Source: an uncultured Bacilli bacterium (GTDB lineage Bacteria; Bacillota_I; Bacilli_A; RF39; UBA660). Taken from it: a DNA stretch of 64,000 nucleotides. A program made the position numbers and the translations under genes. The stretch covers positions 282,955 to 346,954 of the forward strand of contig OZ006994.1 in NCBI GenBank assembly GCA_963931305.1. Reading direction: 5' to 3'. Below the pieces are notes generated by a model. That model saw only the letters and a list, made by a program, of their open reading frames with translations. It was not told the origin of the DNA and searched no databases. This document shows, one piece after another, positions 6,701 through 46,563 of this stretch; position 1 is the first letter of the stretch; every line of letters starts with the position of its first letter.

Positions 6701-6740
6701 ATGAATTTATGGTAGAATGTATATAAAGGAGTAGAAAAAA

Positions 6741-7843: not shown

Positions 7844-7863
7844 AATAAAAGGGTGGTGATCTG

Positions 7864-8436
7864 ATGCAACAAGAGATAATTTATAAAATTGCTAAAATAC
7901 TTGGAAATGTATTGTTTGCTATTTTAGGGTTAATTTTAATGATTTGTTTGTATTCTTTTGTTAGTGTAAAAATATTTTCTCATAAATATGTGAATTTATT
8001 TTCTTATACTTTCTTTCAGATTGCCAGTAATAGTATGGCTCCTGCCATTACTACTAATGATTTAATTGTTGTTCATTTAAATGATGATATTAAAGAAAAT
8101 GATATTGTTACATTTGAAGATGGAGATTCATTTGTGACACACCGTGTGATATCAGTAACAGATCAAGGATATATTACCAAGGGAGATGCAAATAATAGTG
8201 AAGATCAAGCAATTTTAAAAGAACAAGTAGTAGGGAAAGTCGTGCAGATTCTTCCTAATTTTGGAGTATGGTTTAAAGTAATTACAACTCCTAAGATTGT
8301 AATACTTGTGTGTATTACACTATTATGTTTTTCTCTTGCTTTTTCTTATACTGGTAAAAAGTATTTATCGAAAAATGATGATTTTGGTATCTACTATTCT
8401 GGAATTCAAATGAAAAAGGAGCATTCAGATGATTGA
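7864..8436 (+). CDS. sipW: Signal peptidase I, SipW (ER/archaeal) type
   Basis: N-terminal TM. SNSMAP box (catalytic Ser), THRV box (His), KGDANNSED box. C-terminal TM. Sits between genes whose products carry cognate signal peptides. Confidence 0.75.
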   Translation: MQQEIIYKIAKILGNVLFAILGLILMICLYSFVSVKIFSHKYVNLFSYTFFQIASNSMAPAITTNDLIVVHLNDDIKENDIVTFEDGDSFVTHRVISVTDQGYITKGDANNSEDQAILKEQVVGKVVQILPNFGVWFKVITTPKIVILVCITLLCFSLAFSYTGKKYLSKNDDFGIYYSGIQMKKEHSDD

Positions 8437-8983
8437 TAAAAAGAAATTTTTATATTTTAATCGTATTACGATTGCAGTGATAGGTATTTTTCTTTTGTTA
8501 TCTATTACTCAGTTTGCTTTTTCTAGATTTTATACAGATAGTCATGGAGAAGCAATTAGTGAAATTGCCTTTTATACGATTCATCCTGGTAGTCAAACAC
8601 AGAGTTTAAAAATGTTTGATATCAAACCAGATGGAAAAGATTATATTTATGATATTCAAGTTTCTAATACCAAAGATGGGAATGTAAGTGAGGTAGATTT
8701 AGAGTATCAACTTTCATTACGAACAACGACGAATATACCCGTTGAGTATAAGATTTATTTAAATGGTAGTGTTGATAATAGTTTAAATCAACGAGAAATA
8801 ATACAAGATGAAGATGGTATGTATTTCTTTTTGTTTCACGCAAATACGAATTATTTTGATAAAAATATAGAAAAGACAGATGTTTATCGTTTAATTGTTA
8901 ATTTTCCAAAAGAGTATAATCAAGAAGAATATCAAGATTTAATTGATAGTGTAGAAGTAACGATTGATGCCAAACAAGTGTAA
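8429..8983 (+). CDS. Membrane-anchored/secreted protein with SipW-cognate-like N-terminus (…ITQFAFSRFYTDSHGEA…)
   Basis: ATGA overlap with sipW. N-terminal TM followed by an AFSRFYTD motif. Confidence 0.45.
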   Translation: MIDKKKFLYFNRITIAVIGIFLLLSITQFAFSRFYTDSHGEAISEIAFYTIHPGSQTQSLKMFDIKPDGKDYIYDIQVSNTKDGNVSEVDLEYQLSLRTTTNIPVEYKIYLNGSVDNSLNQREIIQDEDGMYFFLFHANTNYFDKNIEKTDVYRLIVNFPKEYNQEEYQDLIDSVEVTIDAKQV

Positions 8984-9080
8984 ATTTAAAAAAAATGTCG
9001 AAAATGTATTGCGATATAAAATCAAGATATGATAAAATGTGTATAGTAAAAGATATAGTAGAATAGGTAGGGATTTTTTT

Positions 9081-10109
9081 ATGGCAAAAACAAAAAAACA
9101 AAAAAAAGCTCAGATGAAGAAAAGAAGATTGTTATTATCTCTTCTTCTATTAGTCGGAACAGGTGTATTCCTTGGTACTGCCACTTATGCATGGTTTACT
9201 GCGAATCAAACAGTTGCTGTAAATCCAATTGATGTAAATGTTGCAGCTCAAAGTGGTTTACAAATTTCAGCAGATGGAAAGAATTGGAAATCAATTTTAA
9301 CTACGACAGATATTACAAGTGCTAGTGGTACTTATGCAGCAGCTAAAAACCAACTTCCAACACAGTTGGCACCAGTATCAACAGCAGGTGTTATGAATGC
9401 GGATGGAAAGATGGAAATGTTTTTAGGATCTGTCACTTCTAATGAAGATAGTGGTAACTTTATTTTATCAGCATCAAAAGAAACAGATGCAAATGGAACA
9501 ACAGGAAATTATGTTGTATATGATATGTTCTTACGTACTGAAGCTGCTGGACCAGTTTATTTGACAACAAATTCAGGAATTTCATTTGCTGATGATCAAG
9601 ATAATGGTATTAAAAATGCGACACGTGTTGCCTTTGCAGTATTAGGTAATACGAGAAGTGATGATACAATTTCAAAAATTCAAGGATTAAATAGTGGTGC
9701 TGCATCACCAGTTACTATTTGGGAACCAAATTTTGATGATCATACTTCATATGGTGTGGCAAATGCGCGTGATACTTATGGAAATGATACTTTAACGGCT
9801 GGTCCTGGAAACGCTGCGGTTGCTTATGATGGTATTAAAGCAGCATTTGGTACAGATCAAAATATTACACTTGGTAATGCAAACGCTACATCTGCTGCTG
9901 CTTATTTCCAAAAAGTTACTCCAACAATTCAAACTGAGGTAGGTTTTTCAGAATATAAGCAATTAGTAACTTTAAGTGCCGGAGTTACTAAGATTAGAGT
10001 ATACTTCTGGATTGAAGGTCAAGATGTAGACTGTGAAAACAATGCATCTGGTGGAAATATTTCATTTGATTTACAAATTAGTAGAAATGATTCTGCTGCA
10101 GGAGCATAA
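9081..10109 (+). CDS. TasA/camelysin (CalY, peptidase M73)-family secreted protein
   Basis: N-terminus MAKTKKQKK…LLLLVGTGVFLGTATYAWFTANQT matches the TasA/CalY signal-peptide region (GGGT(F/W)A(F/A)F(S/N)D). Ala/Gly/Thr-rich mature part. The start was moved to the ATG at 9081; the track ORF starts at 9039. Confidence 0.6.
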   Translation: MAKTKKQKKAQMKKRRLLLSLLLLVGTGVFLGTATYAWFTANQTVAVNPIDVNVAAQSGLQISADGKNWKSILTTTDITSASGTYAAAKNQLPTQLAPVSTAGVMNADGKMEMFLGSVTSNEDSGNFILSASKETDANGTTGNYVVYDMFLRTEAAGPVYLTTNSGISFADDQDNGIKNATRVAFAVLGNTRSDDTISKIQGLNSGAASPVTIWEPNFDDHTSYGVANARDTYGNDTLTAGPGNAAVAYDGIKAAFGTDQNITLGNANATSAAAYFQKVTPTIQTEVGFSEYKQLVTLSAGVTKIRVYFWIEGQDVDCENNASGGNISFDLQISRNDSAAGA

Positions 10110-10190: not shown

Positions 10191-11390
10191 ATGGAAAAGA
10201 CAGATATTATTAAAAGTATCAGCAACCGTACAGGTGGTGATATTTACTTAGGAGTAGTAGGGGCAGTACGTACAGGAAAGTCTACTTTTATCAAAAAAGT
10301 GATTGAAACTTTAGTTGTCCCTAACATCGAAGATGAATATGAAAAGAAAAGAGCACTCGATGAGATTCCACAAAGTGCTCAAGGTAAGACAATTATGACA
10401 ACAGAGCCAAAGTTTGTACCGAGTCAAGCAGCTACCATTCATATTGATGAAGTAGAAGCTAAAATTAGACTTGTTGACTGTGTAGGGTATGTCATTCCGA
10501 ATGCCAAAGGTTATGAGGATGAGAATGGTCCTAGAATGGTAAAAACACCATGGTATGATGAACAAATACCATTTGTGGAAGCCGCAGAAATTGGAACAGA
10601 AAAAGTAATTAAAGATCATTCTACAATTGGGATTGTTGTAACAACTGATGGTTCGATTGGAGAATTAACTAGAAATGATTATATAGAAGCAGAAGAAAGA
10701 GTTGTCTCTGAATTAAAAGAAATGGGAAAACCTTTTATTATTATTTTAAACTCTACCCATCCAATGTTACCAGAAACAGAGCGATTGAGTGAAAAACTAA
10801 CAGAAACTTATGAAGTACCTGTACTTCCAATTAGCGTAGAAAATATGACAGAACGAGATATTTATAACATTCTAAGAGAAGCTCTTTATGAATTTCCAGT
10901 CGCAGAAGTAAATATTAATATGCCAGAATGGATTGGATGTTTATCTAAAGATCATTGGTTAAAGAAAATATATGTAGAAAAGATTAGAGAAAGTGTGATT
11001 GACATTGATAAATTAAAAGATGTTGATCAAATTATTACACCATTTCAAGATTGTGAGTATATCTCTCGTGCATACTTATCAGATGTTAATACTGAAACTG
11101 GTGTGATTACTCTTACATTAGATTGCCCGAATGATTTATATGGCACTGTATTAAAAGAAATTATCGGTGTAGATATTACATCAAAATCAGCTCTTTTATC
11201 ACTCTTCCAAGAATATCAAGTAGCAAAAAAAGAATACGATCAAGTAAAAGATGCACTTGCAATGGTAAAACAAACTGGTTATGGAGTTGCGACACCAACA
11301 CTGCAAGATATGAAATTATCAACCCCAGAAATTATTAAACAAGGAAGTCGTTATGGTGTAAAATTAAAAGCAGTAGCTCCCTCAATTCAC
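10191..11390 (+). CDS. spoIVA: Stage IV sporulation protein A, 5' segment (codons 1-400), interrupted by an inserted element. The ORF reads through into the element and ends at 11477 with unrelated residues.
   Basis: MEKTDIIKSISNRTGGDIYLGVVGAVRTGKSTFIKK… (Walker A) and near-colinear similarity to B. subtilis SpoIVA up to …GSRYGVKLKAVAPSIH. Similarity is then lost exactly where SpoIVA continues MIKVDVES. Confidence 0.9.
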
Positions 11391-11499
11391 ATAATATGTA
11401 CAAAAAGGAAGCGTACTCATTTGAGAGACTGCTTCCTTTTCAAAGATATAAGAAACATACTATTACCTACTATGTAGATGTAGATATTTCTTTCATTAA

Positions 11500-11562
11500 C
11501 TATAATCAATTATAACACACTTTCGACTAACTTACACACTTTTTGACTAGGTGTGTGTTTTA
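11500..11562 (+). promoter_or_regulatory. Operator-like repeats upstream of the XRE regulator gene: ACACACTTTCGACTAA … ACACACTTTTTGACTAGGTGTGTGT
   Basis: Direct repeat of ACACACTTT(c/tt)GACTA. The second copy forms a palindrome ACACAC-n-GTGTGT. A TATAAT-like element follows. Confidence 0.35.
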
Positions 11563-11605
11563 TACTATCACTTATATAATTTTTATATAAGGTGGTGGTA
11601 CTACT

Positions 11606-11896
11606 TTGACTTTAAGAAAAGATATAAAAGATATTTTCAAACAAAATTTGAGATACTATCGTTTAAAAAATAAACTAACTCAAGAAGATTTAGCTGTAAA
11701 GTCTGATTTAACTGATAAATATATATCTGATTTAGAAAGAGGAATATTCTCACCAAGTTTAGAAAAATTAGATATGTTAGCAGAAGCTCTTAATATTGAT
11801 ACATATTTATTATTAAAAGATGACCACTCTGAAGAGAAACTACCTAATAGATTAGATATAATTACAAAAACAAGAAAATCGAAAAGAAAGTATTAA
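11606..11896 (+). CDS. XRE-family helix-turn-helix transcriptional regulator
   Basis: …LTQEDLAVKSDLTDKYISDLERG… HTH_3 pattern. RBS AAGGTGGTGG. First gene inside the element. Confidence 0.7.
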   Translation: MTLRKDIKDIFKQNLRYYRLKNKLTQEDLAVKSDLTDKYISDLERGIFSPSLEKLDMLAEALNIDTYLLLKDDHSEEKLPNRLDIITKTRKSKRKY

Positions 11897-12115
11897 CATT
11901 ATCACAATATCATAAAACTTAATATACCTTTGATAATGAGAGTAACATTTTATTAAAAAGTGTTACTTTCTTTCTTTTATTACCCATTTAAAACGTGGTT
12001 AATGTTTTATTAAAGTAATATAAATTATTAACTTTAAAGAAAAAGTGTCCCAAAATGAACGTGAGATACTTTAGAATTGATGTTTTAATAATACTTATAC
12101 TAGTGGTTACTTTAA

Positions 12116-12877
12116 ATGTTAAAACTAATTATAATAGACCCTATATTTCAAGGTAAGGTTGATAGTATGACTATATTTAGAACAGTTAAAGATAATAATT
12201 ATACAGTAATCAGTAATACATATTTAAAAGATGAGAATTTAAGTTTTGGTGCTATTGGACTAATGACAGTATTATTATCTTGTAAAGATGATACAAAGTT
12301 TAGTGTCAGTTTAATCAGTAAAATAAGTCATAAGAGTAATAAAGTGATAACAAAGTATCTTAATGAATTAAAAAGAAACAAGTATATCTATGTAAAAAAG
12401 AAAAACACAAGAGATGGTTTTAAGTATGAGTATTCAATATATGAGTGTAAGGACTTTAACCCTTATTTTCTTAATATTAGCCCAGATACCCAAAACCCAA
12501 CATGGGAAAGCCCACCTATGGAGACGGGTAATACTATAATAAATACTATTAATAAACAAGATAAAATAGATAAAACAAAATTGAACTTGTGTTTTTTAAC
12601 TGAAAGTATTATTGACTCTGACTTTATTAAAGAAAATGATATTAATTTATTAAGTTATAACAACTTTCTATCTAAACTATTAGAAGAAAATAATAATCGA
12701 CTAGTTATTCAAGTTGTAAGGTATGTTGTAAAGAGAATTAAAGATAATGATTATTTAGATGAGAAGTCTAATCCTATTGAAAATCTACTTACTTATTTTA
12801 AGTCATCAGTTATTAATAATTTAGAGTCTATGAAAGTTCGAGCTGATGACTCTCTCTTTGATGACTGGGAAGAATAA
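12116..12877 (+). CDS. Replication initiator / phage replisome-organiser-like winged-helix protein. True start possibly the ATG at 12167.
   Basis: N-terminal wHTH-like segment (…FGAIGLMTVLLS…SLISKISHKSNKVITKYLNELKRNKYIY…) resembling the RepA_N / phage_rep_org_N class. Weak memory-based call. Confidence 0.35.
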   Translation: MLKLIIIDPIFQGKVDSMTIFRTVKDNNYTVISNTYLKDENLSFGAIGLMTVLLSCKDDTKFSVSLISKISHKSNKVITKYLNELKRNKYIYVKKKNTRDGFKYEYSIYECKDFNPYFLNISPDTQNPTWESPPMETGNTIINTINKQDKIDKTKLNLCFLTESIIDSDFIKENDINLLSYNNFLSKLLEENNNRLVIQVVRYVVKRIKDNDYLDEKSNPIENLLTYFKSSVINNLESMKVRADDSLFDDWEE

Positions 12878-13245
12878 CCTCTACTGATAGTAATAATTAA
12901 GAAGAACTTGATAATAAATATAGAATATTTATATATCAATTTTCTTTTTAAGTTACTATCATCTCTTTGTATTTTGGAGTATCGCAGATTAACGAAAGAT
13001 TAAAACTAATAAAATTATATAAGGAATAGTAAAACTAATCCCAGAAGTACTCCAAAATAAACGTAGGATGACTTATGGTAATAGTCTTACTTTACCAATG
13101 ATAAAAGAAAGTGTATTTAATCAACCTCACTAATGGAATTAGAGTTTTTAAATATTATTAGAATAATAATATTTAAGAAAAATTGGTAGTTTACAAACTA
13201 TAAAAACTTGATAATATAACCACTAATAAGAAAGGTGGTGTATTT

Positions 13246-13497
13246 ATGAACGATAAGTCAAATATAATCTTACGAATAGAAAAATTATCTAAACTATCAA
13301 ATGAATTAAAAGATACTGAAGTTTGTAAGGTTATAAAGAAGATATTAGACTTAATTAATGATATTTATATTTTAATTCCACAAAAAAGAATTAATAGGTG
13401 TAAATATTGTAGCGAACTCACAGATAGTCAAGACCCAAATATACTATGTCCTAATTGTATAGAAACATTCGGACATAGTTTTTTTAGTGAATTATAG
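13246..13497 (+). CDS. Small zinc-ribbon protein (CKYC…CPNC)
   Basis: Two CxxC pairs. RBS AAAGGTGGTG. Confidence 0.4.
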   Translation: MNDKSNIILRIEKLSKLSNELKDTEVCKVIKKILDLINDIYILIPQKRINRCKYCSELTDSQDPNILCPNCIETFGHSFFSEL

Positions 13498-13512
13498 AAA
13501 GGAAAATTAAAT

Positions 13513-13800
13513 ATGTTAAATCAAATAATATTTGTAGGAATACTAAAAGAAATGATTATTAAAGATGATTATTACATTATAAAATTAGAAGTACCAAGAC
13601 GTATAAAAGAAAATGATACTAAACGTAGTGATATTATTACTTTAAAAAAATATGGAATTAATCAACTTATGGAAGAACAAATGGAAATAGACGGTATTGT
13701 TGGTGTTAAAGGACATATTGAAACAGATGATAATGAAATAATGACAAACGTAATAGACAAACTTACATTTCTATCATCAAAGAAAAGGAGTAATAAATAA
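13513..13800 (+). CDS. Small OB-fold, SSB-like protein (tentative)
   Basis: Resembles an SSB OB fold: N-terminal IIFVGILKE, a KLEVPRR segment, a GIVGVKGHIE hairpin. Low confidence. Confidence 0.3.
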   Translation: MLNQIIFVGILKEMIIKDDYYIIKLEVPRRIKENDTKRSDIITLKKYGINQLMEEQMEIDGIVGVKGHIETDDNEIMTNVIDKLTFLSSKKRSNK

Positions 13801-14480
13801 TGGGTGTACTTGATATACATTATAAATACGACTATAAAGGTCGCTTACTTTATATGTTGTTACTAAACTATTATAGAAAGTATTACTCTGACAATAAATT
13901 TAATGGTAAAGTAGTTGTCGCTTGTTCTACTACATCAAGACTTATGAAAGACTATGATATTTTTTATAATACTATCAATTTATTAACAGTTAGTGATATT
14001 ATTAAATTAAATAACTTTACTTACTTCTATGATAAACAACTAAAATTACTCTTTAAAAGGTTAAGAGAAAAAAACGTTAGTTATGATAAATTAATCAAAG
14101 GAATTAAAGAAGAATATACTAAAGATAAATCTTTATATTATGATGACCTCTGTGATAACCACCACAACTTACCTAGTGATAAAAATGTTATATTTGTTGA
14201 AGTAAATAATTTAGTTCAAATATATAGTAAATACTTAATTAGAGATATATTTATTCCAGAGAAACAATATGTATCACAACTAGAGAGACAACATGGTGGT
14301 TTATACTTTGTTTTAAGTGAATATGTAGAAGAATTTATTAAGATGATTAATATATTAAAAGCTCACATTAATATACAAGATGATTTTCTTAAATTAAATC
14401 TATTTATTGATACTGATAAAGGTATAGATATAATTGACAAAGTTAACAGTAGAACAAGAGATGAAGAAGATGAGGAATAA
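13800..14480 (+). CDS. Hypothetical protein (226 aa) with acidic C-terminal tail
   Basis: ATGA-type overlap with the upstream gene. No motif recognised. Confidence 0.45.
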   Translation: MGVLDIHYKYDYKGRLLYMLLLNYYRKYYSDNKFNGKVVVACSTTSRLMKDYDIFYNTINLLTVSDIIKLNNFTYFYDKQLKLLFKRLREKNVSYDKLIKGIKEEYTKDKSLYYDDLCDNHHNLPSDKNVIFVEVNNLVQIYSKYLIRDIFIPEKQYVSQLERQHGGLYFVLSEYVEEFIKMINILKAHINIQDDFLKLNLFIDTDKGIDIIDKVNSRTRDEEDEE

Positions 14481-14481
14481 T

Positions 14482-14898
14482 ATGTTCGCAGATGAATTAA
14501 TTAATAAATTTTTAGATAGTGAAACTTATAAAGAATATGACAAGATTTACAAAGATAAAAACTATGTTGACCCACAACTATTAAAACAATTATTACTAGA
14601 ACACCACGACTTATATGAATTATTTTTAAAAGCGAATATCATTTTATATAAGTATGAGACCAAAGGATTAAAGAAAAGTTTTAACGACTGTTATTATCAT
14701 AATGAAAAGAGATTATTTTTAGAAGATGTATATAATGTTTTACTATATTACTACTCTCACTACTCTAGGTGTCAGACTGTTTTAAAAAAGATGATACAAT
14801 TAAAACTTGTACCAATGAGTGAAAGAAAAATATTAAAACTTATTCTTAATAGAGATATAAGTAAAGAGCTTATTCCACTTAACTTGACACAACTATAA
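14482..14898 (+). CDS. Hypothetical protein (138 aa). Start moved to the ATG at 14482, which has a GAGGAA RBS.
   Basis: The track ORF start at 14434 lies inside the upstream gene. The ATG just after that gene's stop has a good RBS. Confidence 0.4.
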   Translation: MFADELINKFLDSETYKEYDKIYKDKNYVDPQLLKQLLLEHHDLYELFLKANIILYKYETKGLKKSFNDCYYHNEKRLFLEDVYNVLLYYYSHYSRCQTVLKKMIQLKLVPMSERKILKLILNRDISKELIPLNLTQL

Positions 14899-14989
14899 TA
14901 TTAACAGTTTGAGAAAATGAAATTTTATGCTATACTATTGATAGAGTAAAGTAGAAGTCATACAGTTGGTAAATTGTGAGAGGTGTAGT

Positions 14990-16081
14990 ATGGAAAATGT
15001 AATAATGATAGTCCTAATAACAGTAATTTTAATAGGAACATCAATATTTCTTGAAAAGATTTTTAACAAACCAAGAGAAAAGTATAATTGGGATAAGCCA
15101 CCAAAGTTTTACTTTTATATCAGTATGTTTATACCTATTGTTGGTTTTATTATGTGGTGTGTATTTGTTAATCATAAACCTAATTCGGCAAAGTCAGCCG
15201 GAAGTGGTGCATTATGTAATATACTTTTATCAATTATAATTGTATTAAGTGCTTGGTTAATTAATTATTCTGTTTCGTTCGTAAACAATAATATTTTAGT
15301 TGAAGAATATACCAATACATACAATATTCATTTAAATACAGAAATGTCTGATAATTTAGATAAATATGATTTTGAAATGACAGTTACTTATACTGGAAAT
15401 AAAGAATATTTAGATAGATTTAAAGAAATGTATGAAGATGAAATATTCCCAAATAATCAATTAAATATAGATTTTGATGACATAGAAGAAACAAATAACA
15501 ACACCTATGATTTAATTCCATATATTGAAAATTATATTGATGAATTTTTTAATAACTATATAACTATGTATAAAAGTGCAGACGCTTATTCATCATTAGA
15601 ATATATAAAATATAAAATTAAAGAAAAAGAAATCATTGTTAAAGAATTAGTATTAGATGATGAAGAAATTTTGTTAAATTATGCAGTAGATAGTTTTAAC
15701 GATTATAATGGAGTAAAATTAAAAGTCGGAGATAAAGTGGATGTTTATTTTATAGATGAAGAAAATAAAGTGTTTTTTAAAATTATAAATAATAGTACAC
15801 TATTGAGTATTAAAAATGCTAGTGGAGAAAACATAACTAGTGGAATACCATCTATGTTTATCTTAACTGTAAAAGACAGTTACATAATAGATTTCATAAA
15901 TGCTTTCACATATAATTCATCAAGTAATAGATTTAGAACAGTTATTATTAAGCATGGCTCTACATTTTCATTAAATAATTATGAAGAATTAGAAAGTATT
16001 GATGATTATAATGATATGAGATTAAATAGTAATGAAGTTCCAACTGAAACTTTCGGTATAATTGGAGAGGTGCAAGAATGA
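14990..16081 (+). CDS. Membrane protein (363 aa): N-terminal 3 TM carrying the conserved FIPIVGFIMWC-VN-KP--AK-AG module, plus a soluble C-terminal domain
   Basis: Start moved to ATG 14990, which has a GAGAGGTG RBS. The module is shared with the C-terminus of the next gene. Confidence 0.5.
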   Translation: MENVIMIVLITVILIGTSIFLEKIFNKPREKYNWDKPPKFYFYISMFIPIVGFIMWCVFVNHKPNSAKSAGSGALCNILLSIIIVLSAWLINYSVSFVNNNILVEEYTNTYNIHLNTEMSDNLDKYDFEMTVTYTGNKEYLDRFKEMYEDEIFPNNQLNIDFDDIEETNNNTYDLIPYIENYIDEFFNNYITMYKSADAYSSLEYIKYKIKEKEIIVKELVLDDEEILLNYAVDSFNDYNGVKLKVGDKVDVYFIDEENKVFFKIINNSTLLSIKNASGENITSGIPSMFILTVKDSYIIDFINAFTYNSSSNRFRTVIIKHGSTFSLNNYEELESIDDYNDMRLNSNEVPTETFGIIGEVQE

Positions 16082-16569
16082 GTGATGCTTTATTTGAAGA
16101 AATAAATGATTTTAATGAAATAATTGTCAAACAAGACTTTATTAAAATAACAAAAAGTAATGATACTAAAGTTTATTATTTTAGTAAAATAGATTATAGC
16201 AGAAGCTTTAAAACAAATCTTAATGGCGACTATGTTGAAGTTAATATTTATGTTGATAATCAAGATGTCCTATTCATGATAAGAAAAGAAAATTTCTTGA
16301 AATTTAAAGAGATAATTACACCAATAAAAAGAGGTTATGAAAATACAGACTTTACTATTAATGAACAACATGAGTTATATAACCCAAGAGAAGATGACAA
16401 CCCTTCTCCTATTTATGTTATTGTTGGCTTCTTTATTCCAATATGTGGTTTTATTATGTGGTGTATATTAGTTAATACAAAACCAAAAACAGCTAAAATG
16501 GCTGGAATAGCTGGTATAATTGGTTTTATCATTAATTTTATAATATTTATTTATATCTTAACGAATTAA
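16078..16569 (+). CDS. Membrane protein (163 aa): soluble N-terminal domain plus a C-terminal paralogous FIPICGFIMWCILVNTKPKTAKMAG TM module
   Basis: ATGA overlap with the upstream gene. The ~45-aa module is duplicated in the two adjacent genes. Confidence 0.5.
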   Translation: MSDALFEEINDFNEIIVKQDFIKITKSNDTKVYYFSKIDYSRSFKTNLNGDYVEVNIYVDNQDVLFMIRKENFLKFKEIITPIKRGYENTDFTINEQHELYNPREDDNPSPIYVIVGFFIPICGFIMWCILVNTKPKTAKMAGIAGIIGFIINFIIFIYILTN

Positions 16570-16584
16570 AAGGAGTTAATAGTA

Positions 16585-17511
16585 ATGGAAGTATTAAAAA
16601 CTAAACGAGGAGTAATAATTATTATAGGCTTTATTATTGCAGTTATATGTCTTACCATAGGTATGATTTTGTTATTTAATCAAGATAACATAGTGGAAGA
16701 AGTAAAAGAACAAAATAATAATATTAAAGATGAAATTAAAGATGAAGATGATAAAAAAACAGAAGTTGATGATAATAATTCACAGAAAAACAATACAGAA
16801 GATAATAATAATAATAACTTAAACACAGATGAACAACAACAAACCCAAGAAGATAATAAAACTAATAATAATGATAATAATAGTAGCACTAGTACTAATA
16901 ACAATAGTAATAATTCTAGTAATACTCAAAAAACGACTACTAAAAATATAAATGTTGATGAGACTATTAGTTATAGTACTCAAGAGGTACAAGAAGTTAA
17001 TTTGCCAAGAGGTCAAAGACAGACTTCACAAGTAGGTAAAAATGGTATTAAAAGAATTACTTATAAAGTTACTTATAATTCAAATGGTACAGAAATATCA
17101 AGAACTAAAGTGTCAGAAAGTGTTATATCACAACCTATAAATCAAATAATAAAAATTGGAGTTAGCGATTTTAACTTAAATACATCAAAGTTAGAAAATG
17201 AAGTGTATAGTATGGATGCCTGTACTTCAAATCAGTTAGTAAATAATGGTGGTTATTACTGTACTGAAAGTAAAAAATTTAGTGGTATTTTTATAAATGG
17301 TACACTATATATAACTGGGATTTATAATCAAACTAGTATTAGTAACATAAGACCATTAATAGCTTTAAAGCCATCACTTTCTGGTGATATATACAATGGA
17401 AATTATAACGGAGCAAATTATTATTTCTTGATATCAAGCGGTAATTATGTTAATAGAGCTTTAACTCAAAGCGACTGTGATAAATATGGTTTGGCTTGTG
17501 GTAGATGGTAA
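16585..17511 (+). CDS. Membrane-anchored G5-domain protein with an N/D/T/Q-rich low-complexity linker and a Cys-containing C-terminal domain
   Basis: RBS AAGGAG. N-terminal TM. The G5 domain is the segment NVDETISYSTQEVQEVNLPRGQRQTSQVGKNGIKRITYKVTYNSNGTEISR…IKIGV. Four or more Cys in the C-terminal ~100 aa. Confidence 0.5.
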   Translation: MEVLKTKRGVIIIIGFIIAVICLTIGMILLFNQDNIVEEVKEQNNNIKDEIKDEDDKKTEVDDNNSQKNNTEDNNNNNLNTDEQQQTQEDNKTNNNDNNSSTSTNNNSNNSSNTQKTTTKNINVDETISYSTQEVQEVNLPRGQRQTSQVGKNGIKRITYKVTYNSNGTEISRTKVSESVISQPINQIIKIGVSDFNLNTSKLENEVYSMDACTSNQLVNNGGYYCTESKKFSGIFINGTLYITGIYNQTSISNIRPLIALKPSLSGDIYNGNYNGANYYFLISSGNYVNRALTQSDCDKYGLACGRW

Positions 17512-17556
17512 GGTACTAATATAGTACCTTTTCTTAATACATATAAAGAAAGAGAG

Positions 17557-18006
17557 ATGATAAAATATATGGAGACATTAAAAAACAAGAATTTAATTTT
17601 AGTAAATGGAAAAGCTGGAAGTGGTAAATCTACTTTTTTAGTAGATATATCTAATTCTATAAAAGACAAAACAATGTGTTTCATAGATTTAGAAGGTTCT
17701 ACTATTAGTAGATTAAAATTAAGTGATAACATAGATGTATATCTCAAACGTATAGATGACTTCTCAATAATAGATAAAATAGTTAATGATTATGATATTA
17801 TTATAATAGATTATCTTCAATTACTATCACGTTCATTAAATAAAAAATCCACTACCTTACTCGAGCAATTAAAAGAGTTAGCTGTTAATTTAAATAAAGT
17901 TATTATAGTAAGTTATTGTGAAAGTTCATATACTATTGATAAAAGTATAGATAAATGTAAAGAATATGCAGATTTAATTATAACTATAGAAAAGGCTGAA
18001 CAATGA
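17557..18006 (+). CDS. Mini RecA-fold ATPase resembling the DnaB helicase C-terminal domain (149 aa)
   Basis: Walker A NGKAGSGKSTF. IIIIDYLQLL matches the DnaB (V/I)IDYLQL(M/I) motif. Too short to be a full helicase. Confidence 0.45.
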   Translation: MIKYMETLKNKNLILVNGKAGSGKSTFLVDISNSIKDKTMCFIDLEGSTISRLKLSDNIDVYLKRIDDFSIIDKIVNDYDIIIIDYLQLLSRSLNKKSTTLLEQLKELAVNLNKVIIVSYCESSYTIDKSIDKCKEYADLIITIEKAEQ

Positions 18007-18224
18007 ACTATATAGAATTATATTGTAAAACAGTAATACAACCATTAGAGAAGATGAGAAATCAAATTTTAGATAAATATTACTCATCCATTTTCTTTAA
18101 GTCAAAATATAAATTACTATTAGATAAAATTGATGAAGAGTTAATGAATAAGTACAATAAGTTTAATGATATGATAGAAGAAGAAACAAAATTTCAAGAA
18201 TTATTAAAAGACAGTGTTAAGTAG
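18003..18224 (+). CDS. Small hypothetical protein (73 aa)
   Basis: ATGA overlap with the upstream ATPase gene. Confidence 0.35.
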   Translation: MNYIELYCKTVIQPLEKMRNQILDKYYSSIFFKSKYKLLLDKIDEELMNKYNKFNDMIEEETKFQELLKDSVK

Positions 18225-18311
18225 CACTGTTTTATTTTTACACTCTTTTTATATATGATAATGAACGACTTTTTATCAAAGTACATAAAAGTTAACGAAA
18301 GGACTGATACT

Positions 18312-18596
18312 ATGGTTACAGAACTAATACGATTAAAAGATGTGGCTAACAGACTTAATTTATCAACAGCGACACTTCGTAAGTATATACATAATGGAAA
18401 GCTAAAGGCTATAAAAGTTGGTGGTAATTATATGGTTAATACTAATGATTATGATGAGTTTGTCTTTAACTTATATGTTGAAAGTTTAGGATTAAATCCA
18501 ACTAAAGTAAAAGAATATTTAGAAAACGAAGCAAAGGAAGAATTAGAGCAAGAGTTAAATAAACTGATGAAACAAGTTGGTCTAATAAAAGATTAA
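18312..18596 (+). CDS. xis: Excisionase-family (MerR-like) HTH DNA-binding protein, candidate Xis
   Basis: LIRLKDVANRLNLSTATLRKYIHNGKLKAIKVGGNYMV is an excisionase-family HTH signature. Sits immediately upstream of the tyrosine integrase. Start moved to ATG 18312. Confidence 0.55.
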   Translation: MVTELIRLKDVANRLNLSTATLRKYIHNGKLKAIKVGGNYMVNTNDYDEFVFNLYVESLGLNPTKVKEYLENEAKEELEQELNKLMKQVGLIKD

Positions 18597-18652
18597 TTGT
18601 ACTTTGTTAAAACTCTGTATTAAAATATTAATTATTTAGAAATGAGGTAATT

Positions 18653-19615
18653 ATGAGTAATATTATTAGCATTGATAGTAAAGAGTTAATTAATATCAAT
18701 TCAAATCAAGATATAATAGACAAATGGTTAAAGTTTGCCGACGTTAGTAATAACACTAAACAAGCATATAAAAAAGGAGTTTATACTTTTATAGAGTTTA
18801 TTACTAATAAAAATATAAACACTATTACTAGAGAAATAGTATTAGATTTTAAAAATGAAATTATGTCTAAAAATTCTAATGCAACAGCTTATAACTATTT
18901 AAGTGGGTTAAAAAGTTTTTACAAATTTTTAGACTATGAAAATATTACACAAGATATAACTAGAAATATAAAATTACCAAAAATACCAAAAGGACATAAA
19001 AAAGACTCTCTAACTATTGAACAATTAAGGAGTCTTTTATCGTCTTTATCTAATGATACATTACTAAACTCAAGAGATTATTGTATTATTAATCTCATGA
19101 TAAGAACAGGTTTGCGTTCATGTGAAGTATTAGAAGCCAATGTTGGTGATATACAAACAAAAGATGGAAAGAAAATCTTATACATTAAAGGAAAAGGTCA
19201 TACTGAAAAAGATGATTTTGTCGTATTAGAATATGATATGCTTAACATAATTGATAATTACTTAAATAAAAGAAAAAATGTAATTGATAAATCTCCTCTA
19301 TTTATTAGTCTTAACCATAACACTTATGGCGAAAGATTAAAACCTTCTAGTTTTAGAAAAATAATTAAAAACAGGTTAAGGGATGCTGGTATAGATAGTC
19401 CTAGAATATCAGCACACTCTTTAAGACATACAGCAGTAACTTTTTCATTATTAGGTGGAGCCTCTATTCAAGAAGCAAAAGACATGGCTAGACATACAGA
19501 CGTAAATACAACATTAAATTATGCTCATAATCTTACAAGATTAAATGAAAGTCCAGAGTCTAAAATCGAACACTTCTTAAGAGAAAATATAACGCCAAAT
19601 GACTTTAAAAATTAA
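18653..19615 (+). CDS. int: Tyrosine recombinase / phage-type integrase
   Basis: N-terminal SAM-like domain. Catalytic-domain motifs …LMIRTGLRSCEVLEANVGD…, HSLRHTAVTFSLLGG, and …NYAH… with the Tyr nearby. RBS GAGGT. Confidence 0.8.
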   Translation: MSNIISIDSKELININSNQDIIDKWLKFADVSNNTKQAYKKGVYTFIEFITNKNINTITREIVLDFKNEIMSKNSNATAYNYLSGLKSFYKFLDYENITQDITRNIKLPKIPKGHKKDSLTIEQLRSLLSSLSNDTLLNSRDYCIINLMIRTGLRSCEVLEANVGDIQTKDGKKILYIKGKGHTEKDDFVVLEYDMLNIIDNYLNKRKNVIDKSPLFISLNHNTYGERLKPSSFRKIIKNRLRDAGIDSPRISAHSLRHTAVTFSLLGGASIQEAKDMARHTDVNTTLNYAHNLTRLNESPESKIEHFLRENITPNDFKN

Positions 19616-19618
19616 TGT

Positions 19619-19650
19619 TTGGTATCTATAATTATTATTACAGATACCAA
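19619..19650. repeat. Perfect 9-bp inverted repeat TTGGTATCT-n13-AGATACCAA immediately 3' of int, between convergent genes
   Basis: Seen directly. Not followed by a T-run in either orientation, so it is not a canonical terminator. Candidate att/arm-type or end-of-module site. Confidence 0.4.
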
Positions 19651-19656
19651 AAAAGA

Positions 19657-20757
19657 TTAAATAAGTTTATACTTTTTACAAAGTTCAAATAACATTTTTT
19701 CATCTTTTTTAGATGAGTCTTTGAAATGTGTTTTTACAGCAGTTGTTTCATCAACTAGTTGGTTTAATTCTTTATTATTTAATTTACGTAATCGACCAAC
19801 TAAATCTCTACAATTATCATTCAAAGTCTTACGTTTAAGTCTTTCATTAAAATTAGGGTCCTCGTCAAAACAACTTTCACAAAGATTTTTAATAGTGCTT
19901 GATGTAGGTTGTAAACATCTACAACAAATCTTAAAGCTGTCAGAATTCCAGTAAATACAATTTAGAAAATAATAAGTTAAAGACTGAACTAGATTATTTG
20001 TTTCAATATAACCACCGTTAGTATTAGATATAATTGGTGTAGCATAATTTTTATAAGCAGATATATATAGACTAAATTCTTCCTTTAGACTTTCAACATA
20101 ATAATTAAATTCATCTATGTATTTCTTTTTATCTTGAATAGTATCAAAACCCATGAGTTTATTTAATTTCTTTTTGTTTAAATCATCTAAATCAGTATCT
20201 AAAATTTTCTTTAACTCTGTTAATAAATAAACTGTAATAGAAGTAAAAATTAAGTCTTTTACCCTAACACATAATGGTAAATCAGTTTGATTACCCTCTT
20301 CAATAGTATCTTTTTCTAAATTTTCAAAATATGGAAGACCATTTTGTTTACAGAAATTTATAATAACATTAGTAATATTTTTATCTTGGAATAAACTATC
20401 ATAGTCATTAATAAAAATAACATGATTTGTATTAGGTTCAAGGTCTTCATGTAAATCAAATTCATTCTTATATATTACATCATTTCTATTTTTACCATTA
20501 AAAGACACTGGCATTATTCTAATTTTTTCTCTTTTCTTTATAAAGATACGACTAAAGTATTTTATATTTTCAATATTTAAATATAAAGTTTTCCCAAAAT
20601 CAATAAATTCTTTATACAAATTTTCTAAACTTTCACTCTCTGTTAAAAAAACGTCTTTACCAGTAGCTTCTATCACATAGTAATTAAATAGCTTTTTAAC
20701 ACTATAATTTTCAAATCTATATAATGTTCTTTTTAATTTAAGTCCCATTTTTATCAA
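19657..20757 (-). CDS. Hypothetical protein (366 aa) with C-terminal Cys-rich (CCRC…CESC) zinc-binding-like region
   Basis: The only minus-strand gene in the element. Convergent with int and divergent from the downstream block. Confidence 0.45.
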   Translation of the reverse strand: MIKMGLKLKRTLYRFENYSVKKLFNYYVIEATGKDVFLTESESLENLYKEFIDFGKTLYLNIENIKYFSRIFIKKREKIRIMPVSFNGKNRNDVIYKNEFDLHEDLEPNTNHVIFINDYDSLFQDKNITNVIINFCKQNGLPYFENLEKDTIEEGNQTDLPLCVRVKDLIFTSITVYLLTELKKILDTDLDDLNKKKLNKLMGFDTIQDKKKYIDEFNYYVESLKEEFSLYISAYKNYATPIISNTNGGYIETNNLVQSLTYYFLNCIYWNSDSFKICCRCLQPTSSTIKNLCESCFDEDPNFNERLKRKTLNDNCRDLVGRLRKLNNKELNQLVDETTAVKTHFKDSSKKDEKMLFELCKKYKLI

Positions 20758-20959
20758 TTCTCCTTTACAAAATATTAATTTTCATTCCCACTTTTTTCCG
20801 ACCCATAGACATTGAAGTTAAGATGAGATAAGTTGTTGTTGTCGCGACAAAAATGTGTGCTTTATTATAACACACATTAGAAAATTAACAAGACTTGAAG
20901 ACTTGTTATAAAAATTAAAGAAGTGGTAATCCACAAAAAAAAAGAAAGGAAAAAATATT

Positions 20960-21454
20960 ATGCATGAAAATATTGAAGAGACGTTAAACTGGACGTCTGA
21001 AAATAATCCAGTTAATAATGGAATAAACCTCGAAGAGGAATTCCAAAAAAGCAGTGAAAAGGAAGCTACTGCTTTACAAAAAAAGTTCCTAAATGCCTGT
21101 GGCGATATTAGTGAGGAATTTAAACCTGCCACATTTAAGGAATGTCAATTCAAAATTGGCACCAAAAATGGTACGCCATATCTAACGATGGTGTACCAAT
21201 ACAAAAATGTTGACAAGATTATTGAAGATAATTTTTATCTCTCCAATAATGCTTATCAACACAATTTAGAACGTTTAGATAGCGTTCTACACATTATGGG
21301 AGGAAAACTAGAGTTAACCAATACGGTTAACGAAAATGTACTAAAAGATTACATAAATAAATTTAAAGGAGCTGAAGTCTTAATAAGCCAGTTCCGAAAC
21401 AAAGATGGGCATAAACTATGTAATGTAGCAAGCCTACCAAAGGAGGTGGAATAA
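20960..21454 (+). CDS. Hypothetical protein (164 aa)
   Basis: RBS GAAAGGAAAA. No motif recognised. Confidence 0.4.
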   Translation: MHENIEETLNWTSENNPVNNGINLEEEFQKSSEKEATALQKKFLNACGDISEEFKPATFKECQFKIGTKNGTPYLTMVYQYKNVDKIIEDNFYLSNNAYQHNLERLDSVLHIMGGKLELTNTVNENVLKDYINKFKGAEVLISQFRNKDGHKLCNVASLPKEVE

Positions 21455-21455
21455 T

Positions 21456-21956
21456 ATGGCTATCTATAATGGCAAGCATAAAGAAAGCTCTATTGAGGAA
21501 GCACGAGTTTCTTTCATAGAGCTTCAAAATGCTGCTAAACAAAGTCAAAGAAAGCCTAAATTTGTTCCTATAACAAATCAATGGTATGACGGAGTTTTAA
21601 GTGAAATAGTACTAACAAAATCCGTTACTAAAGGTTATCCATGTATTGCGATAACTTTTAGCATACCAAGAGAGAGAAAGCCTGAAGATAAAGAAACGAA
21701 ATATGATAAGATTATCATTAATCATATTCTTTCTAATTTAGCAGGGCCTAAATCTTTAAGAGAGATAAAACGACTATTGTCTATTTTAGGAGTTTCAAAC
21801 CAAGAATTAAATACTATCAGTAATATAGAAACTGAATATAAATTTGTTGAGTATCTTCAAAAATTTGTAGGAACACCTATACGTATTAAATCAACATCAG
21901 ATAGTAGTACCAAATCATACGATATTGAAAGACGAGACGTAAATAATGGAAAATAA
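21456..21956 (+). CDS. Hypothetical protein (166 aa)
   Basis: Tightly packed with its neighbours. No motif recognised. Confidence 0.4.
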   Translation: MAIYNGKHKESSIEEARVSFIELQNAAKQSQRKPKFVPITNQWYDGVLSEIVLTKSVTKGYPCIAITFSIPRERKPEDKETKYDKIIINHILSNLAGPKSLREIKRLLSILGVSNQELNTISNIETEYKFVEYLQKFVGTPIRIKSTSDSSTKSYDIERRDVNNGK

Positions 21957-38618: not shown

Positions 38619-38746
38619 ATATTCAGAATTATCAGAAATTAATATGTATTTGAAAGAGTAAAGGTATGTACAATCACGATTTTATTCACTTTTAATTTCA
38701 AGGATGATATGCTATAATGAGAATGAAAATAGAGGAGGTTATATTT

Positions 38747-46541: not shown

Positions 46542-46563
46542 AAGGAGGTTCCCTCCTTTTTTA
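46542..46563 (+). terminator. Rho-independent terminator after the cotD-like gene
   Basis: AAGGAGG-ttc-CCTCCTT followed by T6. Confidence 0.6.

Follow-up and report, generated by a model that had tools for sequence, protein, structure and literature searches.

The sporulation gene spoIVA is interrupted in the 64 kb window (the whole stretch of DNA that was analyzed) by a 15.3 kb element, which has a large serine recombinase gene at its junction. In silico excision of the element rejoins spoIVA as ...APSIHMIRVDVES... The element is a small Rep/primase replicon, integrative and replicative, without phage structural genes. Capsid, portal, terminase, endolysin, packaging or other transfer genes were not detectable in it, and it contains no relaxase, coupling protein, VirB4 or FtsK-like translocase; the neighboring small RecA/DnaB_C-like ATPase of the element is only 149 aa long. 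The skin-type intervening elements (sigK skin, SPbeta in spsM, vfbin and vrin) similarly split a mother-cell gene, and have a large serine recombinase at the junction (PMC4191935). The element studied here differs from them in being a small replicon of the above type, and in that its related copies occupy different sites and rely on different recombinases. In the literature examined, spoIVA is not named among the targets of skin-type elements.

Within this element, a promoter, two membrane protein genes (TM1 and TM2), a gene for a G5 domain protein and a terminator form a self-contained transcription unit, located in an exchangeable slot (Table 1). The ATG at 14990, which follows the Shine-Dalgarno sequence GAGAGGTG, is the best start of TM1. 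The stop codon of TM1 and the start codon of TM2 overlap as ATGA (16078-16081), with GGAGAGG upstream, in agreement with the translational coupling proposed by the first-pass annotation. The two genes are always adjacent and coupled.

Table 1. Features of the cassette and of the adjoining backbone (positions are those of the window).
Feature	Position	Strand	Basis
Two backbone ORFs, 226 aa and 138-154 aa	13800..14898	+	Conserved with backbone, outside cassette
Extended -10 promoter-like site, TTGAGA-16-TATACT with TG before	14909..14936	+	Sequence scan
TM1 gene, 363 aa	14990..16081	+	ORF; homologues; dN/dS
TM1 copy of module, aa 40-97: FYFYISMFIPIVGFIMWCVFV-NHKPNSAKSAGSG-ALCNILLSIIIVLSAWLINYSVSF	15107..15280	+	BLASTP, profile search
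TM1 C-terminal domain, aa 98-363, net charge -30	15281..16078	+	AF2, Foldseek
TM2 gene, 163 aa	16078..16569	+	ORF; coupled to TM1 by ATGA overlap
TM2 N-terminal PH-like domain, aa 1-88	16078..16341	+	AF2, Foldseek
TM2 copy of module, aa 112-163: IYVIVGFFIPICGFIMWCILV-NTKPKTAKMAG-IAGIIGFIINFIIFIYILTN	16411..16566	+	BLASTP
Third gene, 308 aa: signal-anchor TM, N/D/T/Q-rich linker, G5, C-terminal 4-Cys domain	16585..17511	+	ORF, Pfam
G5 domain, aa 120-193	16942..17163	+	Pfam PF07501, E=9.7e-17, 61.4 bits (cutoff 23)
4-Cys C-terminal domain (Cys 213, 226, 298, 305)	17164..17508	+	Homology to P0225-P0228
Terminator-like hairpin, AAGGTACTAATATAGTACCTT then TTCTT	17510..17530	+	Directly 3' of G5 stop codon

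The promoter-like site lies ~55 nt 5' of the TM1 start. The position of its -10 box (TGnTATACT/TATAAT) is kept in the related elements L001, L006, L003 and L002, and the site is 92% identical in L019, though a different gene lies downstream there. Because promoter-like sites overall in the region are no more numerous than expected by chance, the weight of this putative promoter rests on its conservation. It looks sigma-70-like, with an extended -10, and shows no evident sigma-E or sigma-K box. The element is enriched in terminator-like sites, having 11 of them where 2.2 would be expected, and L003 has an equivalent hairpin after its third gene.

Two ORFs 5' of this site (13800-14480 and 14434-14898), within the span given by the first-pass annotation, are backbone genes of the element and lie outside the cassette; they are conserved with the backbone (93-97% identity in L001, L006 and L019, and 28-47% in L002 and L003; dN/dS 0.05-0.17). 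Neither gave a family match. Rep, p226 and Int have dN/dS of 0.05-0.18.

TM1 and TM2 contain copies of a module of ~45 aa. In TM1 it follows one TM helix close to the N-terminus, and in TM2 it forms the C-terminal end. Comparison of the two copies by BLASTP gave 22/41 identities (E=1e-12), supporting the earlier proposal of a duplicated TM module at opposite ends of the two proteins. A search of the six frames of the window with an HMM of the module recovered these two copies only (next-best match E ~1), and the module is the most conserved stretch in the TM1 family. Whereas the first-pass annotation recognized no named family, our profile search returned at least 1,570 protein clusters, mostly small Firmicute proteins containing a zinc ribbon and the module. 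Among 143 close relatives, 76 match Pfam PLDc_N (PF13396), and 82 carry Zn_Ribbon_1; TM1 and TM2 themselves give no match to PF13396 even at E=0.1. By these profile matches, the module is a widespread membrane anchor bordering PLDc_N, usually fused to a zinc ribbon. TM1 and TM2 share the family consensus (WavLGFFIPlVGLILfLVWkntKPksAKsAGkGALiG) with the zinc ribbon/two-helix hairpin proteins of Firmicutes, but bear an RcpC-like and a PH-like domain, respectively, in place of the zinc ribbon. They also have in common the sub-signature GFI(M/I)WC..VN.KP, of which the part WC..VN.KP is shared by only 1 of 143 outside relatives. The earlier caution that the motif might be a common signature, unrelated between the two genes, is thus nearly borne out as to its commonness, but not as to unrelatedness, since the copies are homologous and share this rare sub-signature. 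In one protein, P0060, the module is fused to repeats of Ltp, the superinfection-exclusion protein of phage TP-J34. We know of no member of the PLDc_N or zinc ribbon-hairpin family with a known function. PLDc_N also combines with SHOCT in proteins of up to 173 aa (PMC3581485).

TM1 consists of one N-terminal TM helix, a basic loop (loop0), a PLDc_N-like hairpin and an acidic C-terminal domain (266 aa). Its homologues fall into 32 clusters, all unnamed. The dN/dS of 0.38-0.39 indicates that TM1 is a real gene, evolving faster than the backbone. The AF2 model of the C-terminal domain has a pLDDT of ~80-90 across most of the region, and its best Foldseek matches in the PDB were RcpC (9gzr_A/B, E=1.2e-4 and 5.4e-4, prob 1.0), with modest TM-scores of 0.34-0.36 over 132-142 aligned columns. 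No sequence or Pfam match of TM1 to RcpC or SAF was found. The modeled domain therefore resembles RcpC/CpaB of the Tad pilus alignment complex at the level of the fold only, this being its best and only significant structural match. Both proteins have an N-terminal membrane anchor; unlike Tad systems, the element lacks tad genes (ATPase, platform proteins, pilin). Longer relatives of TM1 (P0033, P0036, P0037 and P0041) end in 1-3 YbbR domains (PF07949, up to E=8.5e-20), none of which is detectable in the TM1 of the window. The YbbR domains of CdaR face outward, and the TM1 family is similar to CdaR in placing outward-facing domains after a TM anchor (PMC10636490). TM1 differs from CdaR in lacking a CdaA or GlmM partner, and in having a PLDc_N-like hairpin, not a single helix, as the anchor. 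Variants in the TM1 family with 2 and 4 extra N-terminal helices have K-rich N-termini, which suggests that loop0 is inside. The single-helix form and the net +3 charge of loop0 are consistent with this placement.

The AF2 model of the TM2 N-terminal domain (pLDDT ~90) contains seven strands and a C-terminal helix. Its best Foldseek matches in the PDB belong to the PH superfold, led by the bacterial PH structures 3b77, 3dcx and 3hsa (prob 0.99-1.0). The domain as modeled is a bacterial PH fold, like that of Exig_2160 (3b77) and DUF1696 (3dcx), and the Pfam bPH models did not match TM2. Bacterial PH domains are often tethered to the membrane, assemble into oligomeric rings, and are found together with SHOCT (PMC3581485). 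We found no description in the literature of a PH domain fused to a PLDc_N-like hairpin, as in TM2.

The third gene agrees with its earlier description as a membrane-anchored G5 protein with an N/D/T/Q-rich linker, as it has an N-terminal signal-anchor helix and a clear Pfam G5 match, and residues 32-118 are 64% N/D/T/Q. The protein ends in CDKYGLACGRW, and the chromosomal G5 proteins P0225-P0228 contain a homologous C-terminal domain, also with a C..YGL(A/S)CG.W end. No PDB sequence match was found for the 4-Cys domain. The gene is limited to one sub-branch of the relatives, and has a dN/dS of 0.63 (versus L006).

The first-pass annotation had raised the question of co-occurrence in other elements. 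The TM1-TM2 pair is present in all diverged relatives examined (L001-L011, L016 and L017), with the sole exception of L019, and the genes keep the constant order Rep ... TM1-TM2-(slot 3)-ATPase-HTH-recombinase. In L019, the backbone is 93-99% identical, and TM1 and TM2 are precisely replaced by a single PH-2TM-Zn-ribbon-SHOCT protein, and the flanking sequences are preserved as far as the first three codons and the next Shine-Dalgarno sequence. In L001, L002 and L003, the third slot is occupied by a Zn-ribbon protein that has a TM helix at its C-terminus, and L017 has no gene there. The contents of the slot are thus precisely swappable. The cassette is also found in elements at unrelated loci with other recombinases (L001, L003, L006 and L002), including non-sporulation sites (L001, L003 and L006). 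Evolution has been more rapid in TM1 and the G5 protein than in the backbone, with dN/dS <1 throughout. TM2 is 57-64% identical in diverged elements (dN/dS 0.14-0.19); in L002 and L003 it is 57-62% identical, compared with 42-50% for Rep, and ranks highest among the left-arm proteins after the HTH regulator. The exchange in L019, the swapped or absent third gene in other relatives, the raised dN/dS, and the separate promoter and terminator support the earlier view of an accessory cassette outside replication and integration. Simple cargo is a poor description, however, because even deeply diverged elements have kept the pair, and TM2 ranks among their most conserved proteins.

We tentatively propose, as the most likely of several explanations, that this exchangeable cassette alters the envelope against competing phages or elements, in exclusion or defence. 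A re-entrant course is probable for the module's first hydrophobic helix (IPxxG), and would place the PH domain of TM2 under the membrane, and the TM1 ectodomain and the G5 protein outside. TM1 and TM2 probably pair through the hairpins bearing the GFI(M/I)WC..VN.KP signature, to form a membrane-spanning complex; the rarity of this signature among outside relatives is counted in favor of pairing. The complex would be made in the integrated state, under the separate promoter of the cassette, and would most likely change the envelope so as to keep competing phages or related elements from entering or becoming established. We count in favor of this proposal the anatomy of the three proteins (the homologous, widespread module, the RcpC-like and PH folds, and the G5 domain), the inside placement of loop0, the separate expression unit (conserved -10 box, terminator and ATGA coupling), the swap in L019, the variable third slot, the dN/dS of TM1 (0.38) and of the G5 protein, the outward-facing parts (YbbR in TM1 relatives, and the four conserved Cys of the G5 protein), and the anchoring of Ltp repeats by the module in P0060. 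Counted against it are the dN/dS <1, the fold-level nature of the RcpC match, the chance-level total of promoter-like sites, and the location of the cassette among replication genes, not in the classic moron position by the repressor or integrase. PADLOC and PHROGs returned nothing for TM1 or TM2, and no homology to known exclusion or defence proteins was found. Superinfection exclusion or abortive infection, two of the roles suggested by the first-pass annotation, is plausible.

The retention of the pair in deeply diverged elements, and the conservation of TM2, also count against exclusion, and would suit a function in the life cycle of the element. The pair could be a core device of this kind, either a tether that holds the excised circle at the membrane for its replication or segregation, or a minimal machinery of transfer between cells, in which an outer RcpC-like ring and an inner PH platform would work with the RecA/DnaB_C-like ATPase. 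We consider this unlikely, though it has several points in its favor: the constant gene order, a TM2 better conserved than Rep, the description of RcpC as the ring-forming part of a trans-envelope machine, and the lack of other detectable transfer, capsid or packaging genes. It is difficult to reconcile with L019, which has nearly the same backbone without TM1 and TM2, and with the promoter and terminator that set the cassette apart from the ATPase operon. A transfer apparatus would further have to function without a relaxase, coupling protein, VirB4 or FtsK-like translocase, and with a very small ATPase, and the raised dN/dS of TM1 points to a partner that is external and variable, not fixed and internal.

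Rather more doubtful is an envelope sensor, in which the RcpC-like and G5 outer domains would detect wall or membrane damage or phage attachment, and signal through the hairpins to the sub-membrane PH domain, thereby controlling induction or excision of the element. PH, Zn-ribbon, 2TM and SHOCT are typical parts of membrane-proximal signaling and stress complexes (PMC11237479; PMC3581485), SHOCT co-occurs with each of PLDc_N, bacterial PH and the double zinc ribbon (PMC3581485), and the replacement protein of L019 consists of exactly such parts. That protein lacks an obvious ectodomain, however, the Zn-ribbon protein in the third slot is predicted to lie entirely in the cytoplasm, and the cassette has no fused or coupled transcription factor, kinase or protease.

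The insertion in spoIVA with a serine recombinase at the junction, as in skin, and the occurrence of G5 domains in sporulation-associated wall proteins such as YabE, could point to a spore-surface modifier or sporulation factor on an element excised during sporulation, as the first-pass annotation had suggested. This is very improbable, given the cassettes at unrelated, non-sporulation loci with other recombinases, the sigma-70-type extended -10 promoter, and the restriction of the G5 gene to one sub-branch. Least probable of all is a holin/lysis module, or a structural (envelope) module of a phage or plasmavirus, for which the several membrane proteins in a small element and a weak PHROG match of the G5 protein to an Rz-like spanin (E=0.005, on the low-complexity linker) might speak, and which is largely refuted by the missing lysis and capsid genes, the size of TM1 (far larger than a holin), the lack of similarity to plasmavirus L2, and the absence of matches in 50,697 phage genomes (megablast, tblastn), IMG/VR and BFVD structures, where the clear homology to phage structural or holin proteins envisaged as counter-evidence by the first-pass annotation was not found.

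The proposed envelope-altering cassette is comparable with the exclusion proteins of Firmicute prophages (Ltp of TP-J34, Sie2009) and with two-gene membrane defences of prophages, which are also membrane or surface proteins of an integrated element, with their own promoter, exchange between close relatives, and fast evolution. Unlike Ltp and Sie2009, to which it has no homology, it sits among replication genes, and its TM1-TM2 pair is retained over long evolutionary distances. If our proposal is correct, the cassette would represent a superinfection exclusion system or an envelope-level defence.

The window is part of an AT-rich Firmicute chromosome in which spoIVA is interrupted, with the gene for a large serine recombinase lying immediately upstream of the segment encoding SpoIVA_C. 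The left junction reads cac/AT/aatatgtaca, and the right junction tattatacat/AT/gattcg. Because of the split in spoIVA and the positions of the recombinase and the junctions, the intervening 15.3 kb is regarded as a mobile element, and the sequence is compatible with a predicted excision that would restore the spoIVA ORF ...APSIHMIRVDVES... (SIHMIRVDVES). As in skin-like elements, a mother-cell gene is split here, with a recombinase at the junction and a predicted restoration of the ORF; the main text of one survey (PMC4191935) makes no mention of spoIVA. The element encodes, in order, a Cro/CI-type HTH regulator, a DnaD-like Rep, a small zinc-finger ORF, an OB-fold/SSB-like ORF, two ORFs without assignment, three membrane proteins, a 149-aa RecA/DnaB_C-like ATPase, an HTH_17/excisionase-like protein, an internal tyrosine recombinase, a reverse-strand 366-aa ORF and a PriCT/DUF5906 primase. 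Capsid, portal, terminase, endolysin and relaxase genes were looked for in the element, and none was detected. An almost identical element is present in L001, a MAG labelled 'uncultured Tenericutes bacterium', and in the human-gut metagenome contigs L019 and L006-L011.

Features of the window discussed in the text, with their positions
Feature	Position	Strand	Remarks
Operon of unannotated secreted/anchored proteins	5147-10109		upstream of spoIVA
S24-type signal-peptidase-like gene	7864-8436		within the preceding operon
SpoIVA_ATPase and SpoIVA_middle	10191-11477
Mobile element (predicted extent)	~11390-26660		15.3 kb
Two backbone ORFs	13800-14898
TM1	14966/14990-16081	+	preferred start, ATG at 14990; Shine-Dalgarno GAGAGGTG upstream
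TM2	16078-16569	+	start overlaps TM1 stop as ATGA; GGAGAGG just 5'
G5 protein	16585-17511		PF07501; signal-anchor helix; N/D/T/Q linker; 4-Cys C-terminal domain
149-aa P-loop ATPase	17557-18006
Internal recombinase	18653-19615		tyrosine type
366-aa ORF	19657-20757	-
Large serine recombinase	25026-26681		immediately upstream of SpoIVA_C
SpoIVA_C	26662-26937
Band_7(SPFH)-SHOCT protein	38717-39979
471-aa multi-zinc-ribbon protein	39981-41396		C-terminal TM helices
MazE/MazF (PemK) pair	46516-47213		type II toxin-antitoxin
Four tandem type IV pilin genes	58256-60041		paralogous; N-terminal methylation motif

Several further observations concern the surroundings of the cassette. In PADLOC, the ATPase that follows it weakly matched Nhi (E=4e-10) and AbiO (E=1e-8); matches to DnaB_C and AAA_24 were also obtained. 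With a dN/dS of 0.36-0.41 its evolution is relatively fast, and its role may lie in replication or defence. The internal recombinase is either XerC/D-like (tyrosine type) or a small serine resolvase, depending on the relative (13539-14138 in L002, 7465-8070 in L017, 14647-15351 in L019), and because the two types alternate at the same position, a role in replicon multimer resolution is suggested, rather than that of a second integrase. The 366-aa ORF is conserved (53% identity in L003), with a C-terminal Cys cluster, CCRC...CESC, and no family match; unrelated reverse-strand ORFs of 398-438 aa take its place in L002, L006 and L017, and this position may be a second variable slot. Outside the element, the four pilin paralogs have nearly identical N- and C-terminal ends (…GGYTVTITNDKATVN). 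The operon upstream of spoIVA also encodes a 356-aa protein whose signal region is TasA/camelysin-like, and might serve to produce fibres or a biofilm matrix.

The first-pass annotation had drawn a cargo block over 13800-17511. This holds for the three membrane genes, TM1 (363 aa), TM2 (163 aa) and the G5 protein, which we refer to as the cassette; the remainder of the block consists of two unrelated ORFs of the element backbone. The coupling of TM1 and TM2 was borne out by their ATGA overlap, and the G5 assignment by a Pfam match to PF07501 at 61.4 bits (cutoff 23, aa 120-193), a match also precomputed for 44 homologs. The signal-anchor helix of the G5 protein is N-terminal, its linker is 64% N/D/T/Q, and its C-terminal domain has four cysteines. 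The combination of a G5 domain with a 4-Cys domain ending in C..YGLACG(R/S)W is found too in chromosomal proteins outside such elements.

A transmembrane module shared by TM1 and TM2 had also been proposed, and BLASTP between the two proteins returned a single significant segment (22/41 identities, E=1e-12), covering FIPI(V/C)GFIMWC..VN.KP..AK. In a six-frame translation of the 64-kb window, a module HMM found these two copies only, with the next-best match at E ~1. The module had been described as duplicated and unrecognised; it is instead a common anchor at the border of PLDc_N. A profile built from both families gave 1,570 matches at E<=1e-3 among 1.84 billion cluster representatives (32 at E<=1e-10), with the consensus WavLGFFIPlVGLILfLVWkntKPksAKsAGkGALiG. 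The matching proteins are mostly of 60-280 aa and typically begin with a zinc ribbon, which a low-complexity linker connects to the module. Among the best 143 outside relatives, 82 contain Zn_Ribbon_1 and 76 match PF13396 (PLDc_N) at E<=0.01 (best 4.9e-6); one of the relatives checked individually, P0048, scored 23.5 bits, above the PF13396 gathering threshold of 23.3 bits. TM1 and TM2 themselves did not match PF13396 in Pfam even at E<=0.1, below the gathering threshold. Membership in PLDc_N is thus transitive and borderline, because the relatives match PF13396 but the window proteins do not. Hydropathy and charge, AF2 helices and the architectures of the relatives fit the PLDc_N layout of two hydrophobic helices with a short basic loop, and the hairpin occurs alone or anchoring other domains, as PLDc_N does. 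PLDc_N is a known short membrane module, often combined with SHOCT, which also combines with bacterial PH domains and double zinc ribbons (PMC3581485). The module is a divergent PLDc_N-like anchor, common and of an already known kind.

TM1 and TM2 were considered as mutual closest relatives arising from a recent internal duplication, and this was rejected: they are 47.5% identical over 40 core aa, and outsiders reach 53% identity to TM1 and 65% to TM2. The two do share a sub-signature, GFI(M/I)WC..VN.KP, which is present in only 1 of the 143 outside relatives and hints that the two have co-adapted, or share an ancestor, within this lineage of elements. The same sub-signature occurs in a Zn-ribbon protein (P0042), and in P0060 the same anchor is fused to Ltp repeats. 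Ltp is known to act in superinfection exclusion; we know of no member of the hairpin family itself with a known role. Metagenome contigs also encode three apparent in-frame chimeras: the C-terminal 135-145 aa of TM1 are joined in P0031 to a GerMN-domain protein and in P0032 to an AAA_14/DUF4143 ATPase, and in P0039 the TM2 hairpin is joined to an unrelated 200-aa N-terminal region. These could be products of real domain shuffling or assembly artefacts.

The soluble domains were examined by structure prediction. Neither TM1 nor TM2 had a meaningful match in Pfam, PHROGs, NCBIfam or PADLOC, and sequence searches of the PDB, run with both proteins and with the C-terminal domain of the G5 protein, likewise yielded no real matches. 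In the alignment of the TM1 family, the hairpin is nearly invariant and the remainder has diverged. The AF2 model of TM1 has a mean pLDDT of 73 (~80-90 across most of the soluble domain), and this domain is very acidic, with a net charge of -30. In Foldseek against the PDB, the only significant matches were two RcpC chains (9gzr, E=1.2e-4 and 5.4e-4), aligned with a probability of 1.0, but with a TM-score of 0.34-0.36 and an rmsd of 11-12 over 132-142 columns. Against BFVD viral structures, the TM1 fold gave nothing below E=0.03. TM1 had no Pfam match to the RcpC/SAF families, RcpC was not among the results of the PDB profile search, and none of the tad/cpa genes looked for in the element (CpaF ATPase, TadB/C, Flp pilin) was found. 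The modeled likeness to RcpC, a Tad-pilus alignment protein, would thus be one of fold and not of family membership. The N-terminal domain of TM2 (aa 1-88, AF2 pLDDT ~90) has seven strands and a C-terminal helix, and its top Foldseek matches are PH-superfold domains, led by the bacterial PH proteins 3b77, 3dcx and 3hsa. The predicted seven-stranded sandwich capped by a C-terminal helix is that of the PH fold. No match to the Pfam bPH models was found at E<=0.1, and here too the model suggests a resemblance to bacterial PH (bPH) proteins in fold only, not membership in the family.

Some TM1 variants have two or four helices before the module, and because their N-termini are K-rich, the basic loop preceding the module (loop0) is placed inside; the single helix and the net +3 of loop0 in the window's TM1 are consistent with this. 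The loop within the module is also basic (+2 in TM1, +3 in TM2), and the 100-aa N-domain of TM2 lacks a signal peptide. YbbR and RcpC-type domains are normally located outside the membrane. Longer TM1 relatives carry one to three YbbR domains, which in CdaR face outward on the cell (PMC10636490). The points from charge, signal peptide and domain location would agree if helix 1, with its central IPxxG, were re-entrant and only helix 2 crossed the membrane. The PH domain of TM2 would then lie under the membrane, and the C-terminal domain of TM1 and the G5 protein outside.

Comparison of related elements shows that the cassette is both core and cargo. TM1 and TM2 are present, always adjacent, in every diverged relative examined (L002, L003-5, L017, and L016, whose contig ends 31 codons into the TM2-like gene), with identities of 57-64% for TM2, 42-50% for Rep and 31-45% for TM1. 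The cassette has an extended -10 box of its own, ~55 nt upstream of TM1 and conserved in all lineages, and both the window and L003 have a terminator hairpin downstream of the third gene. This gene encodes a G5 protein in the window and in L006-L011; in L001, L002 and L003 its product is instead a Zn-ribbon protein whose TM helix is C-terminal, and L017 lacks the gene. The backbone of L019 is 93-99% identical to that of the window, but a single 347-aa protein (11401-12444) takes the place of TM1 and TM2, with GRAM/PH-like N-terminal domains, two TM helices, a zinc ribbon and SHOCT (E=1e-8). One breakpoint directly follows the first three codons (MEN), which L019 retains along with the promoter and RBS, and the other lies immediately upstream of the G5 gene's Shine-Dalgarno sequence. 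Against close relatives, dN/dS was 0.38-0.39 for TM1, 0.63 for the G5 protein and 0.14-0.19 for TM2, compared with 0.16-0.18 for Rep, 0.05-0.13 for the 226-aa backbone protein p226 and 0.07 for the integrase. This is the behavior of an accessory slot, with outward-facing parts under diversifying pressure. A metagenome scan with the backbone protein, for a wider view of slot occupancy, gave only two loci. The accessory reading proposed from the sequence is thus supported by the replacement in L019 and by the variable third gene.

Elsewhere in the window, the host gene for the Band_7(SPFH)-SHOCT protein is followed directly by that for the multi-zinc-ribbon protein, and this pair belongs to the same sub-membrane module family as the cassette and its L019 substitute.

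Domain content, synteny, the swap, conservation of the promoter and the rates of evolution are all observed. As the reading that we favor, we tentatively propose that the cassette modifies the envelope and serves as a unit of exclusion or defence. It would be expressed while the element is integrated, and the conserved promoter-like site and the terminator are the features that point to expression. The PH domain of TM2 would lie under the membrane, with the RcpC-like domain of TM1 and the wall-binding G5 protein on the cell surface, and the PLDc_N-like hairpins would hold the proteins together in a complex. By modifying the envelope, this complex might confer an exclusion or defence phenotype. 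The Ltp repeats on the same anchor in P0060 are a detail in favor of this reading. Neither TM1 nor TM2 showed homology to known exclusion or defence proteins in PADLOC or PHROGs, and for the G5 protein PADLOC gave nothing beyond a low-complexity match.

The long-term retention of the TM1-TM2 pair would also be expected if it served the life cycle of the element, for example as a membrane tether or in transfer; the replacement of both genes in L019 weakens this explanation, which we consider doubtful. An envelope sensor controlling induction would match the theme of PH, Zn-ribbon and SHOCT domains in sub-membrane signaling complexes (PMC11237479), and appears rather improbable. The first-pass annotation had also suggested a spore-surface modifier; as elements inserted at sites unrelated to sporulation carry the same cassette, such a role is very unlikely. 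A holin or virion module is essentially excluded by searches of phage genomes, Acholeplasma virus L2, BFVD and IMG/VR: the phage structural or holin homology that would have spoken against an accessory module was looked for in Pfam, PHROGs, phage genomes and BFVD, and was not found. Holins are small proteins with 1-4 TM helices encoded beside an endolysin, unlike TM1, which at 363 aa has a large soluble domain in an element with no endolysin. Among 50,697 phage genomes, there was no match to the whole element by megablast or to TM1 by tblastn, and IMG/VR scans with TM2 and p226 gave no relatives. A plasmavirus-like or pleomorphic provirus was also considered and rejected, as all 19 element proteins, compared by tblastn with Acholeplasma virus L2, had chance-level matches only, BFVD gave nothing below E=0.03, and no capsid, portal or terminase was found.

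The PLDc_N-like anchor, divergent here, and the standard G5 domain are already known, and as an accessory membrane cassette of a mobile element the cassette is known in kind. In the databases searched, we found no description of the architectures hairpin plus RcpC-like domain or PH domain plus hairpin, of the obligate TM1-TM2 pairing, or of such a pair residing in a Rep/primase integrative element, in a slot open to exchange. If the cassette is merely an uncharacterized accessory membrane operon, the lasting result is that the 'novel motif' is a common PLDc_N-related anchor. More speculatively, and with a low probability in our estimate, TM1 and TM2 would form an undescribed two-protein envelope system, with PH inside, RcpC-like outside and re-entrant hairpins, carried and swapped by small replicative integrative elements of gut Firmicutes and excluding rival phages or elements. 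If true, this would be the first function for the very large 'zinc ribbon + PLDc_N-like hairpin' family. More than a thousand Firmicute protein clusters contain the hairpin module, and the slot is visibly exchanged between near-identical human-gut elements. The two-gene cassette, genetically tractable and with recognizable inside (PH) and outside (RcpC-like, G5) parts, is a practical entry point to the function of this anchor family, and may bring to light a new form of exclusion or defence acting at the envelope.
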